Below are positions 7,552 to 43,377 of a stretch of 64,000 bases of DNA, piece by piece. The position numbers were made by a program, and so were the translations under genes. The DNA is from Octopus vulgaris (lineage: Eukaryota): the NCBI GenBank assembly GCA_951406725.2, contig OX597832.1:41478001-41542000 (forward strand). Reading direction: 5' to 3'. The notes below the pieces were generated by a model. It searched no databases, was not told the DNA's origin, and saw only the letters and a list, made by a program, of their open reading frames with translations. How positions within the stretch are numbered: the first letter of the stretch is position 1; each line of letters begins with the position of its first letter.

Positions 7552-9992
7552 GTTCTTGACTCTGCCTTCTTTGAGTATCATTTTAGTTTCTCATCTGCTT
7601 GGTTGACTTAGAGGAGAAAATTTAAGATAACCGAGGGAGGCAAAGTGCAACTGAAATTATGGCTATTACCAATTGTGACATTGCAATTGACGTGAATACA
7701 ACCTCAAAAGACAAATCTATATATCTTGTAGGTTTTTCAGTCATTGAACTGTGGCCATGCTAGGGTATTGCCTTGAAGGGTTTAGTTGGACAAATCAACC
7801 CCAGGGCATATCTTTTGCCAAATTGCTAAGTTACAGGGAATATAAGCAAATCGACACTGGTTGGGAAATGATGGGAGGGAGGGACAAACACATACATACA
7901 CACACACACACATATATATACATACATACACACTTAATAGGCTTTCATAATTTTCATGTACCAAATTCACACACAAGGTATTGGGCAGTCTGGGGCTATA
8001 GTAGAAGACACTTGCCCAAGGTGCCTTGCAGTGGTTGGTACTGAAGTGAACCTGAAACCATGTGATTGCAAAGAGAATTTCGTAACCACAGAACCATGAA
8101 AAAAAAAGAAAAATATATATCAAAAACAAAATGAAGGGAAAAAAAGATAAAAGAATGGAATCACAAAGAAACAAATATTTGATAAACTCACAAGAGATTT
8201 TTATCTCCATTTTGCAGAACATCTTTGTTTTGTTGTCATAAAAAAAATTAAAAAAATGAAATTAAATCAAAAAAATAATAAAATGAAATAAATTTATTGG
8301 CCAAACCAAGAAAAATGAAATGGTGCTCTTCCCCATCTTTTACAGCAACAACAACAACAACACAAAAAAATAACACAAAAATAACAAATGTTGAAGGTGA
8401 GAATTTGTTTTCGTTTTTTTTTATATTTTTTTTTGTTTTCTCTCTTTTTTTGTTTTCTTGCATTGTTCCAAAATAATATATAAAGAACAGAGAATGATTG
8501 ATGAGAAGAGAACCAAATATTTTATGGGTTCTACGGAGTCATAAAGCAGTGATCAAGATGATTCTAAACAGTTCAATGGAAACATTTGCAAGGGTGGACT
8601 AACCCGCCCCTACCCCACTCCATCACATTCATCTGCCTCGGTAATCTATCCGACCCTTTCCTTTTTCTCTTTCACTCTATCTCTCTCTCTCTTTCTTTCC
8701 AACCACAAATCTCTCTGTCTATTCCTTTCCCCCCCTCTCTCTCCAGTACTCTCTCTCTTTCTACTTTTTACTAATTACATCAACCTCTTTCTCTCTCTCT
8801 CTCTCACACTCTACCTCCATTCATTTACCTATCACACCCCCACCCCATAATGTACCCATCGATCGTTAGAGGAATTAATTCAAGTAACCTCTGCATTAGT
8901 GCCCTGTTACTGTAATTAGGATGTTCACGCTGTTATTAGTTACTTAATTAGTAGTAGTAGTAGTAGTAGTATCTGTTAACGATGCAACACTTTCCTCACA
9001 CTGGCAAATTTTGGTACGGAGTGGATTGCATACACAGTATGTGTGTGTGTGTGTGTGTGTATCTGTCTGTCTGTCTCTCTCTCTCCCTCCTTATGTAGGC
9101 AACTTTTCGTGCCTAAATGTGGTCATACAATGGTAGCAGCAGGAGATTAAGTTGTAGCTTATGATCCAAGAAGTTTCTATCCTTAAATTACACAGCCAGA
9201 GTGCTTATATGTACAATGTATGTGCGTGTGAATACACACACACACACACACACAAACATATCTACATACACACATATACATATGAAAAAATATGTATATA
9301 TATCTTCTATTTTTTTTTACTTGTTTCAGTCATTGACTGAGGCCATGCTGGGGTACCACATTGAAGAAGTTTTAATTAAATGAATTGAACGCACACAAAC
9401 AAATACACAGTGAGAGAGAGAGAGAGAGAGAGAGAGAGAGAGAGAGAGAGAGAGAGAGAGAGAGAGAGAGAGAGAGAGAGAGAGAGAGAGAGAAAGAGAG
9501 AGAGAGAGACTGTGATGAAATGGGAGAAGACAACATAGTAAATTTTGAAATGTTAATAAATGGACTTAAAGCTGCTAATTAAATTAATATTATTTAATTG
9601 ACTTCAGTGTAGCACTGAAACACGGGTGGTCCTGTGGCAACAGGACACACCCATATTTTATTTTTTAAGACACTCTCACAGATTTCGGAGTATATTGAGT
9701 GTACAAAAGTACCCATTTGATTTATGTTCAGGTATAAATGATTGTAATTCATCTGCACCTGAAAACTGTGGCATTACCTTGAATTTTAAACATACACATA
9801 CACACACACACACATGCAAATATTTACACAAACACACATACATGTATGCACAGCGACCTTTATATCTCTCATGCACTCCATTTTCATCATAAACACAGAC
9901 ACACACACACACACACATATATATAGTTGGAATTTACAGAAAAACAATAGACAAGCAGCTGTATTAGTTTGTCACTCAAGAAAGTGAGAAGG

Positions 9993-10031
9993 TCTTTTAC
10001 ATTTCAAGCCTATGCTCTTCAGCGGGAAAGA
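9993..10031 (-). ncRNA. Decayed minimal hammerhead-like motif in a ~160-bp insert within a CA/TA tract
   Basis: Minus strand reads tcttt c CCGCTGA a gagc atag gctt GAAAT GTA aaaga. The core has several substitutions. Confidence 0.35.
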
Positions 10032-10619
10032 ATATGAGGAAATAAACAGAGAGAGAATAAGAAAATTTGTGGATTTAGCAATCATATACGTACACACACA
10101 CACACACACACATATATATATATATATATATATATATACATACATATATGATTATACACACATACATATATACATATACATATATATATATATACACATA
10201 CATATATACACATACATATATATATACATATATATACACATACATATATATACACATACACACACACATATATATATATACACATACATATATACACACA
10301 TACACACACATACATATATATATACATACATATATACACATACATATAAATATATACATATATATATATATACACATATACATACATATAAATATATACA
10401 TACATATAAATATATAAACATACATATATATACATATATATGTACATAGATACACATATATATAATTATGTACACACACACACACACATGAACATGTGTG
10501 TGAATGCGTTTGTTCCTGCTTTATGCTTCATATGGTGTGAGTGGCATTGTTAATATACAAAAAACAAATCACAAAATATTTGAATATTAGTGGAAATAAC
10601 ATAGTGGGTCACATTATTA

Positions 10620-40353: not shown

Positions 40354-42868
40354 AATACAATGTCACACAAACATGCACAATCTTTCTTTCTCTCTCTCTC
40401 ACACACAATGGGTTTCTTTCAGTTTTTGTCAACCAAATCCTCTCACAAGGCTTCGGTCAGCTCAGAGCTATAGTAGAAGACATTTGTGAGGTGTCTTCTG
40501 AACCTGAGACCATGTGGTTGGGAAGCAAACATCTCAACCACCCAGCCATGCCTGTGCCTACAGCCACACCCGTACCCATGATTTGTCTAATTACATATAG
40601 AGTGGCTGGTATTGGTGTTGCCATAAATTGAAAGTCAGAGTCAAAGTTTTTGTGCACCAACTCCACAACGCTGTCTGCTACAGTGTTCTGGACTGACCAC
40701 GCCTAACACATACTACACATACCCCAAAGTACAGTACACACATATACACATCCTAAAGGAAACCTCTATAAATTGCAGACCACCACTGCCACTGCCATCA
40801 CATCTATGTCCTACACATTCTTGCCATTACTCTCACATGATAACCTTTTCACCATTATATCAATGACCTACTCAGTTAATTCAAACCAAACTCTCACACT
40901 AAGATCACTCAAACTTTCAATTCTTGAAGATAATCTTTTTTAAGCAGTCATCATTCACAGACAACCTACACACCTTTCACCAGACATTGTATTGGAATCA
41001 ACATTCTCTCAAATTTCATCTCGAAATCTTAAATAAAAATAAAGAGTACTTTGGATAATGTAGTCTTAGATATTTTATGCCTGAAAAAGAACAAAAAACC
41101 CCAAAAAACAATGGGATAGGCATGGTGGAGACTACCATCAACCTGGGACTAAAGTGAAGTTAAGCAACTACTAACTATGAACAAAGATCTTGAAAACAGC
41201 CCTCAATAGGGACATGAATCTTCTTTTCCAATAAACACTTTAGTTAATCCTTTCTGTTAAAAAATACCAGTGAAGGCATATGGTTTAATGGTTAGGGTTT
41301 TTGGCTTACAATTTGTAAGGTCGTGAGTTCAATTCTCAGCAGTGTGTTATGTCCTTGAGCAAGACACTTTATTTCACGTTGCTCCAGTCCACTCAGCTGG
41401 CAAAAATGAGTTGTACCTGTATTTCAAAGGGCTAGCCTTGTCACATTCTGTGTCACGCTGAATCTCCTAGAGAAATACATTAAAGTTATGCACGTTTGTG
41501 GAGTGCTCAACCACTTGCAGGCTGTTCCATTGAGCAGATCATCTGGAACAAAATTCCATGGTTATTGACATCAACTTCTCCCTATAGATATCACTTTCCT
41601 CAAATACAAATATTTAAGCTCTGGCAAACTGAATATCAAGCTCACTAGTTTGGGAGAGACTGGGTACTGTCCCCATTCAGCACCAAATCAAGATTTCACC
41701 CCTTGATTATAACAAGTGTTAGCAGGAGATATCACCACGAGACAGATGGAAATGTCAAGTACTGAAAACACACACACATACACAAGCATAACAGAGACTC
41801 TTTTAATGATGTGACATTTTGATCATAGTAAGTTGAGGAGAAAGAAGGAGTAGAGAGAGAGAGAGAGAGAGAATAAGATGCACCCAGAAATAGGTCTCTG
41901 TGTGTGTGTGCATGATTCTGTGTACAGTTAGATATTTAAATATAATGGAAACCACATAATCTATATGAGCAGATAAGATATATATCTGGATATGCAAACA
42001 AACTGGCTACGTATTCAGTGTAAAACATACAATGAATTCTTTAATCAATTATAGTCAAAACAATATATTATGATATAATTATTGTCAATCAACATCTCTA
42101 TAAATTTGTGACTTTGTTCCGATATAAGGAAGCGTCACTGCTACCACCTCTGCTATCACCATAAAAAAATGTCACTTCATGAAAAGCTAGAATTTTAGAT
42201 TTGTATCATTATATATGATGTAGTGCACCTAAGCACTTTATACAATAAACTCATTATTAACATCTTAAAAGGGGAGATGACTCTGAAGGTACTCTATGCT
42301 ACATTCCTAGTAAGTAAATTTAGGGTCTTTCCTTCACTGTAAAGTTTCTCGGGGCTGAAACCAGAGTTTTTGTACTCATGCCACAATAGGAAAAAAAAAA
42401 TGCTACAAATGAGTAGTGTCAAGTGTTTGAATGAGCCAATTATAAGATCTTTAATTGTTCTGAAACCGCATCTGGCTCTGTAGTACAAATATCTTGTTTT
42501 CAAAAACTGAATTAAAATCTTCCACCAAACCTTAGTCACAATTTATGTTCCTAATACTAGCTTAATGACTCTCCCTCGTATTAGTTCCTATGTGCATTCC
42601 ACCATTATGATGGCTTGGAGCCCTGCATTAGAATGTTTCAAGCGTATTTGGATGCTTAACCAGTATAGATCATCAGGAAATACTTGATTGCATAAAGTTA
42701 CAAAAAACTACTATTGCAATAAAGTGTTCCTTGATGACCCCATTAAGTATCCATAAACACTTGAAACAAACAATACAGGGGCCCAAGCAAGCATAATTGT
42801 GATATGTATGTAGGAACTAATAATATAAACTTACGTTTATTGTAATTTCTTATATATATATATATATA

Positions 42869-42953
42869 TATATGAATAAATGAAAAGAATGGAGTCGAAC
42901 GAAGATTTTAACAAAATCTTCGTTCGACTCCATTCTTTTCATTTATTCATATA
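42869..42953. repeat. Perfect 41-bp-arm hairpin (3-nt loop) at the edge of a ~220-bp insert in (TA)n
   Basis: tatatgaataaatgaaaagaatggagtcgaacgaagatttt aac aaaatcttcgttcgactccattcttttcatttattcatata. Confidence 0.9.
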
Positions 42954-43377
42954 AAAAAACACACGAATTTCCTCACACGAACACGGGTTTCTGCCCTTGG
43001 CATGTAACTACAACCGTGTTTTACTGACGTGAATTTGCTACCCAGGTATCGATTAACCGAATTATCCATACTAGGATAATTCATTCATCTACTTATATAT
43101 ATATATATATATATAGTAATAATAAGCCATGTCACAAAAGATATGAGATCTGTGGAAATGTGTGTAGCAGTGCATCAAAATATTCATGAAATTCCATCCT
43201 TGGATTAATATTATTATACTATATTTATCCTATGTTATATCGGTGCAGCTTGGAACTATCTCATAAAACTGATGTTACAAGTTGGAACCACTAGACCGTA
43301 GCCAGTGCAATAATATAGGAGCTTTTATGTGTGTATTCAAAAACATTTCCTGTAAACAAACTTAAAGGATACTTACA

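Follow-up and report, generated by a model that had tools for sequence, protein, structure and literature searches.

How does a perfect palindrome with a hammerhead ribozyme motif in each arm come to lie in a TA tract, and is it a mobile unit of its own or part of something larger? The question is raised by a 64,000-nucleotide (nt) stretch of the Octopus vulgaris genome (assembly GCA_951406725.2, contig OX597832.1, positions 41,478,001 to 41,542,000), hereafter the window, in which short inserts at 9.9, 12.2, 12.4, 20.5, 21.2, 22.0, 34.5 and 42.9 kb had been pointed out in a preliminary description. All eight were recovered as dispersed repeats, and searches of the 2.8 Gb, 227-contig genome returned 449 to 4,287 first-look candidates for each, 40 of which were scored per insert, such that every insert is multi-copy. 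The short inserts are pieces of Penelope-like elements (PLEs) and their non-coding hammerhead derivatives. They are not a single class and comprise PLE ends, retrozyme-like units and one repeat that lacks a hammerhead. The palindrome at 12.2 kb, with which we are mainly concerned here, probably consists of two complementary DNA (cDNA) copies of the 5' end of a capped RNA, primed on both sides of one cut in a (TA)n tract and joined by microhomology.

A Hydra-clade element behind the 12.2 kb insert

The insert extends from 12111 to 12313 and is made up of a 67-nt tail and a perfect 136-nt palindrome (12178-12313), the arms of which overlap at a 4-nt palindrome (12244-12247). Counted from the first base of the underlying element (+1), its parts are:

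12111..12177, minus strand: tail of the Hydra-clade element (+69 to +137), bordered by (TA)n on its outer side; long copies continue from it into the reading frame
12178..12247, minus strand: tail-bearing arm; hammerhead 12247-12197, its core starting at 12241 and its predicted cut falling between 12203 and 12202; AATAAA follows
12244..12313, plus strand: tail-less arm; hammerhead 12244-12294 with core 12250-12256, predicted cut after 12288, AATAAA, then (TA)n

The hammerhead of the tail-less arm has a U10.1-U11.1 mismatch and a near-palindromic stem III. The 40 best matches of the family are 99-100% identical over 140-143 nt, and exact motif counts for two subfamily groups (2,630 and 2,151) amount to about 4,800 arm matches. 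In the 30 loci examined, a set biased to one junction, (TA)n flanks the insert on both sides, and it adjoins 168 of 170 outer ends as compared to a background of 5.8% of the 25-mers in the window. The targeting of TA tracts that had been proposed for the inserts is thus borne out, most strongly in this family.

Ninety-eight tails are not followed by a microsatellite, and 11 of these share one continuation, which is the start of a reading frame. The insert is hence the first 137 nt of a young autonomous PLE of the Hydra clade. An earlier view of the family as a 135-nt non-autonomous element was dropped once the copies running into the frame had appeared. Intact frames of 722 and 718 residues are present, the former with YRDD and VY..YIG motifs. 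The protein modelled from the 722-residue frame (predicted local distance difference test score, pLDDT, 93) has its best fold matches among telomerase reverse transcriptases (TERTs; E 8e-9). A Pfam search with the Hydra frames gave no reverse transcriptase (RT) or GIY-YIG match, the endonuclease being assigned from its motifs, and a sequence search of solved structures returned no match. The attributes of a PLE are found together in this family: a telomerase-like RT with a GIY-YIG-type endonuclease at the C-terminal end of the same frame, and pseudo-long terminal repeats (pseudo-LTRs), that is 5' and 3' repeats around the frame, an inverted 5' copy and a tail on a single end (93 of 93 pairs). 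The assignment to the Hydra clade rests on motifs, namely RWR (for RWK), DKT, a CxCX5C linker, and CxxC and CxH around E and N in a frame lacking CCHH, which were compared with section 11 of the account by Craig et al. (2021; PMC8557442).

C-terminal endonuclease PLEs of the Hydra clade share with the octopus element the single frame of about 720 residues, the RW(R/K), DKT and CxCX5C motifs, CxxC/CxH around E and N, the hammerhead in the pseudo-LTR, the (TA)n target, the inverted 5' copy and the single-end tail (PMC8557442). They are described there as few families, mostly cnidarian and shorter than 3 kb, whereas the octopus harbours two young families with thousands of arm matches. Tails are about 67 nt long here versus 30-40 nt in that paper and, unlike the clade as published, the octopus elements have 3' regions of 1-3 kb and occur mostly as minimal head-to-head products. 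In the 12.2 kb family the 3' region is long, with 2-3 kb of CA/TA-rich simple sequence in both inverted arms (L329-L334, L346). One insertion of a Hydra-clade family holds a nearly whole Neptune/Nematis-type PLE, with Pfam RT and GIY-YIG matches, between its two arms (L439: 2702-5024).

The Penelope link suggested in the preliminary description is also supported outside this family. Extension of copies of the 9.9, 12.2, 12.4 and 42.9 kb inserts leads into linked PLE frames, with RT or GIY-YIG parts, so that the idea of several non-autonomous families fails for these four and holds for the 21.2, 22.0 and 34.5 kb inserts and perhaps for that at 20.5 kb. The window itself had been said to contain no PLE frame, which is correct apart from a single weak remnant, endonuclease-like and on the minus strand (50420-50593; tblastn E 3e-4).

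Paired arms and the origin of the palindrome

Arms were sampled from the first 100 listed places of each of two motif searches, which gave 98 and 97 distinct arms, 195 in total, all selected by a downstream motif. The 93 sampled pairs are without exception head to head, one arm ending at about +137 with the tail and the other at about +68 without it, and inverted long copies of 2-8 kb share these outer ends with the short copies. At their 5' ends, 41 of the 195 arms stop at +1, 70 further in, five one base beyond and seven in the next 22 bases upstream; the remaining 72 are long. Although the spacer itself varies, 11 of the 12 spacer variants listed have a TATAAAT motif at a distance of 29 nt above +1. 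Furthermore, in 13 arms the base preceding +1 cannot stem from the partner, and in 10 of these it is G (P about 1e-4 to 6e-6), the element's own base at this place being T (C or A in minor variants). Junctions differ between pairs and consist of 1-4 nt overlaps or short copied fillers, which resemble the products of microhomology-mediated end joining. Because they vary from copy to copy, the fold-backs are not family units. No single junction is more frequent than that of the window, on the AGCT palindrome at +1 to +4, which accounts for 12 of 64 short pairs. This AAGCTT junction is present in about 600 insertions genome-wide (1,219 arm matches, five loop haplotypes) and, like both (TA)n ends, occurs as loose ends in short-read contigs in three of the four runs shown.

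We propose that a TATA box directs transcription to begin with the base that opens hammerhead stem I. Both strands of a (TA)n tract would then be cleaved by the enzyme of the element, one strand end priming reverse transcription at +137 and the other at +68. Both reactions would run off at the cap, which would add the extra base, and host end joining would anneal the two cDNA ends, mostly at the AGCT palindrome beside the end. Transcripts that read through and are primed at the downstream repeat would give rise to the long copies. A capped transcript beginning with the first base of stem I is inferred from the pile-up of 5' ends, the TATA motif 29 nt above it and the extra G; in the RNAs that are copied, the ribozyme would mostly be uncut. 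In twin priming of LINE-1 (long interspersed element 1, L1) both target strands likewise prime and the products are joined by microhomology, as proposed here. The second L1 primer anneals within the RNA and inverts a different part of it, whereas here both primers would copy one stretch from two fixed sites.

Several steps have precedents in the literature. The Poseidon element of Anolis carolinensis was studied in vitro, where both strands of an AT-rich target are cut and extended, synthesis begins at two sites that delimit the tail and uncut RNA serves as the main template (Frangieh et al., 2024; PMC11167929). The arm ends at about +137 and +68 match these two tail-bounding sites. Inverted insertions and the transcription start are not explained in the accessible part of that study, and the joining step is supplied here by the genomic pairs. 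In L1, an untemplated G is taken as the sign of a copied cap (PMC9341517). As to the promoter, that of Drosophila Penelope is internal and TATA-less (PMC2377424), and a TATA box has been suggested for the pseudo-LTR of a rotifer element (PMC3846280).

A second young Hydra-clade family served as a test, for which the prediction was written beforehand and the first 30 loci and the next 20 stretches were examined. It has 3,257 arm matches, at least 13 frames of 718-727 residues without stops, many of them intact at 727 residues (L549-L553), and a hammerhead with A-A at 10.1-11.1 and a GCAA loop. All 25 pairs found there have exactly one tail; the tail-less arm is the longer one in 11, the tail arm in eight, and the two are equal in six. 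Of 58 arms, 20 begin at -19 to -11 relative to the core, whereas the stretch from -20 to -171 contains no start. The start cluster lies 27 nt below a TATAGA motif, and the junction hot spot is the palindrome CTAG. The family of the 42.9 kb insert has fixed outer ends as in the two young families. Its long copies enter a GIY-YIG-type frame and an RT thumb, and its assignment to the Hydra clade rests on these parts (thumb 50% and endonuclease 34% identical to the 12.2 kb frame). Its copy in the window is:

42869..43095: head-to-head pair of another Hydra-clade PLE; tail-less arm 42869-42917 on the minus strand (short), tail-bearing arm 42905-43095 on the plus strand

Among the other ways in which such pairs could form, self-priming deserves most attention. 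A single strand would fold on a short palindrome and copy itself, as has been put forward, with an antisense template, for rotifer PLEs (PMC3846280), and the course of events preferred here departs from that published proposal. Zero-spacer perfect palindromes as the commonest single junction (the 12 of 64 short pairs already mentioned) are what self-priming would yield, as is a haplotype common to both arms, which was seen in 45 of 45 listed pairs. The copied arm must then lie within the tail arm. Among the 64 short pairs, however, the tail arm reaches further 5' in 25 and the tail-less arm in 26, with 13 equal, and in the second family the tail-less arm is longer in 11 of 25. As a fold-back copy cannot exceed its template arm, two separate reverse transcriptions fit better. 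An antisense template would also leave the limit at 29 nt below a TATA motif in sense orientation and the extra G unexplained. On balance we regard self-priming as unlikely.

[quoted passage not shown] About 600 insertions with an identical AAGCTT junction, and 40 best matches 99-100% identical over 140-143 nt, would be expected of such a unit. Yet 52 of 64 short pairs have other junctions, the AAGCTT junction is found in five haplotypes that also occur as long elements, and the hot spot of the second family is a different one, CTAG. The entire insert moreover folds as one hairpin (-120 kcal/mol), which would hide both ribozymes. Copying of the whole unit is thus improbable. Even less credit can be given to random 5' truncation of long RNAs, with end joining that favours the palindrome and no RNA start at +1. 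It would be in keeping with the identical outer ends of the 2-8 kb inverted copies and with the spread of junctions in the 42.9 kb family, but the 22 bases above the site contain the ends of only seven of the 195 arms, versus 111 at or below it, a 150-nt stretch in the second family is free of ends, and the G is non-templated; it is very improbable. Fold-back artefacts of long reads, which the frequent one-arm gaps in short hairpin copies might bring to mind, can practically be dismissed, as the two sides are unlike, only one bears a tail, the flanks differ, and the junction and both (TA)n ends are present in short-read contigs.

Twin priming with run-off at the cap, which we favour, has to be weighed against a number of observations. 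Transcription start, cap and ribozyme cleavage are all deduced from genomic sequence. Of the 41 arms at +1, 21 belong to AAGCTT junctions, at which the palindrome by itself could suffice to fix the end, and the extra G rests on 13 arms. When the 3' flank is included, the RNA folds best into a competing hairpin that covers the cut site (z -0.85 to -1.2). Both arms share their haplotype in the 45 listed pairs, with two discordant cases at variable sites among the 93 pairs, for which reason two RNAs explain the pairs no better than a single RNA copied twice or a single source active at any one time; two RNAs drawn from a mixed pool are not supported. The sampled loci lie in the initial part of a single contig. 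Single-base gaps that affect one arm are present in many short pairs but absent from the short-read table, and are likely to be assembly errors. In the second family two arms extend 1-2 nt past the predicted start and the test for an extra G gave no clear signal, and in the 42.9 kb family the pile-up is weak, with three of 36 arms beginning at most 8 nt from the predicted start and none in the 48 nt above.

The origin of the inverted repeats of PLEs and the role of their hammerheads are named as open questions in PMC8557442 and PMC3846280. The thousands of minimal products with fixed outer ends in the two young families, together with intact frames, render the question answerable by counts. 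In a literature search that did not extend to subscription papers and Repbase, no title or opening of an abstract among the papers listed described twin priming, cap run-off or such minimal palindromes for PLEs. PLE ends, minimal hammerheads and retrozyme-like units are known kinds; new here are the minimal two-arm product and its bearing on the mechanism. For annotators this means that an autonomous retrotransposon can leave MITE-like palindromes in TA tracts as by-products.

Hammerhead motifs in the window and in the families

A strict hammerhead pattern that demands a paired 10.1-11.1 has no match in the window. A relaxed pattern, defined after the motifs had been seen, matches three times (both arms at 12.2 kb and the motif at 22.2 kb), whereas 100 shuffles averaged 0.08 matches and in no case reached three. 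With core variants allowed there are five matches versus 0.34 in shuffles, the additions being 12.5 kb and a stray at 7.5 kb (7528, minus strand) that is tied to no repeat and may be due to chance. The motif count hence exceeds that of shuffled sequence, under a post hoc pattern, while the four clear hammerheads that had been claimed shrink to 12.2 and 22.2 kb as places with an unchanged core, 12.5 kb passing only with core variants. AATAAA does follow two of the motifs, at 12.2 and 12.4 kb. Folded as monomers, five motifs from the window did no better than shuffled sequences. Among the Rfam matches listed for the window (150 of 208) there is no ribozyme, nor did Rfam report one on an intact element or pseudo-LTR of the 12.2 kb family or on a copy of the 20.5 kb repeat. 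These hammerhead variants escape Rfam, which is relevant to annotators.

At the level of families the proposed minimal hammerheads are supported, the motif being present in seven of the eight; the exception is the 20.5 kb repeat. Here, the CTGATGA at 20.6 kb is not followed by GAAA in the window or in the family, and no complete hammerhead core was found. The window copy at 21.4 kb is decayed and better copies of the 21.2 kb family have the full motif. In the 9.9 kb family the motif stands in a different register, with A6 changed to U or C, and is broken in the window. The 12.4 kb family has a U3-A8 swap, with an exact TTGATAA in 13 of 24 copies and C3/A8 in the window (12523-12529). The hammerheads of the 42.9 kb family (canonical, 6-bp stem II, palindromic stem III) and of the 34.5 kb family (6-bp stem I) lie just 5' of the parts kept in the window. 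Short stem I, palindromic stem III and the U3-A8 swap are shared with the minimal type I hammerheads of PLEs, as are opposite-strand motifs 100-700 bp apart, which stem mainly from truncated elements (Cervera and de la Pena, 2014; PMC4209133). The pair G10.1-C11.1, highly conserved in the data of that paper, is mismatched here at 12.2, 12.4, 21.2 and 22.0 kb and in the second young family.

In the 12.2 kb family the type I hammerhead is complete, with CUGANGA and GAAA cores, NUH and three stems. Among 395 arms, the subfamilies differ only at five sites, which are N7, three bases of loop II and one of loop III, and this suggests that the fold has been kept. G10.1-C11.1 is absent, being replaced by U-U (394 and 395 of 395 arms), a mismatch that is tolerated as a natural variant (PMC3088659). 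The predicted fold of +1 to +54 contains all three stems, and self-pairing of stem III is calculated at -12.8 kcal/mol.

Traces of cleavage were sought in the base before the cut site, which is changed in at most 45 tail arms genome-wide. By eye these are 24 stem I junctions, 15 point changes, four cases with both arms at the site and two others; a script that classified 42 distinct contexts arrived at 21, 14, 3 and 4 in the same categories. In the four insertions, both arms start at the cut site or no more than 2 nt from it and are separated by filler, which hints at rare self-cleavage. A strong signal of cleavage in vivo was not found, given only four such cases in 45. Stem III might conceivably pair two element RNAs in one particle, one for each (TA)n end, so that the ribozyme would be a template-pairing device in the first place; we consider this rather unlikely. 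If true, a dimeric hammerhead cleaving both RNAs in vivo would have left its trace in the rare insertions whose two arms begin there, and the thousands of young insertions would be a readable record of every step.

The remaining inserts and their surroundings

Five long inverted repeats had been claimed among the inserts, and five local ones were found, with arms matching at 77% to 100%:

12182-12309: inverted repeat, 100%
12402-12606: inverted repeat, 85%
21330-21474: inverted repeat, 84%
34515-34677: inverted repeat, 77%
42875-42947: inverted repeat, 96%

Adjacency to (TA)n, proposed for most of the inserts, is seen beside the 12.2 kb family for those of 42.9, 34.5, 20.5, 9.9 and 12.4 kb; it is low for 21.2 kb, and the 22.0 kb family is not TA-associated:

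42.9 kb family: 24/25 copies adjacent to (TA)n
34.5 kb family: 19/25 copies
20.5 kb family: 17/25 copies
9.9 kb family: 14/25 copies
12.4 kb family: 13/25 copies
21.2 kb family: 8/25 copies
22.0 kb family: 1/25 copies

The features behind the six inserts not yet described are as follows:

9920..10084, minus strand: old PLE 3' end, decayed in the window; Neptune/Nematis-type endonuclease upstream in two longer copies
12395..12612, no strand assigned: old head-to-head pair of PLE 3' ends; palindromic stem III, AATAAA, Neptune/Nematis-type linker in the family
20508..20912, minus strand: fragment of a TA-tract repeat that is about 700-800 nt long; CTGATGA lacking a GAAA
21150..21474: retrozyme-like with a unit of 350-370 nt; arms head to head, 21150-21386 on the minus and 21385-21474 on the plus strand; core at 21395-21401
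21985..22373: retrozyme-like with a unit of 350 nt; arms head to head, 21985-22114 on the minus and 22108-22373 on the plus strand; core at 22203-22209
34410..34682: retrozyme-like with a unit of 460-480 nt; arms head to head, 34414-34604 on the minus and 34610-34682 on the plus strand; hammerhead not retained

The inserts at 9.9 and 12.4 kb are 3' ends of PLEs, classified by linker and motif as presumptive Neptune/Nematis-type elements. One longer copy of the 12.4 kb family has a CX2-5CxxC linker and a YVG motif upstream, the last 150 nt of the link resting on this copy, and an endonuclease homologous to that of the 12.4 kb family lies upstream of two 9.9 kb copies.

Units of 350-370 nt (21.2 kb), 350 nt (22.0 kb; 20 of 25 copies) and 460-480 nt (34.5 kb) are evident from the offsets within these three families, whose copies often start with the end of a preceding unit and exceed unit length. 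Because non-coding units of a few hundred nt with a hammerhead recur as copies longer than one unit, the three families appear, by sequence layout, to fit the non-LTR retrozymes. No PLE frame was present in the five long flanks examined for 22.0 and 34.5 kb, and no autonomous partner was found in the flanks examined for 20.5, 21.2, 22.0 and 34.5 kb. The 21.2 and 22.0 kb inserts are bordered by what we take to be an RTE-like RT fragment (21480-21990), at which the right arm of the 21.2 kb insert stops, and by a presumed LINE endonuclease fragment (22385-23160). Animal non-LTR retrozymes are likewise non-coding units of 350-480 nt with a type I hammerhead (PMC7229834; preprint 10.64898/2026.07.22.740005). 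Compared with these, the octopus families are mostly dispersed and often head to head with the tail signature of PLEs.

The 20.5 kb repeat, in which no ribozyme match (Rfam) and no frame were found, has the TA target in common with the other inserts and occasionally contains inverted parts. Four of its copies (L059, L067, L071, L074) share one 5' end, which is followed by a splice-donor-like GTAAGT. Head-to-head copies are also formed by other repeats in the window: an abundant SINE-like repeat, absent from the preliminary description, has fold-backs at 18187-18447 (94% complementary) and 63303-63380 (87%).

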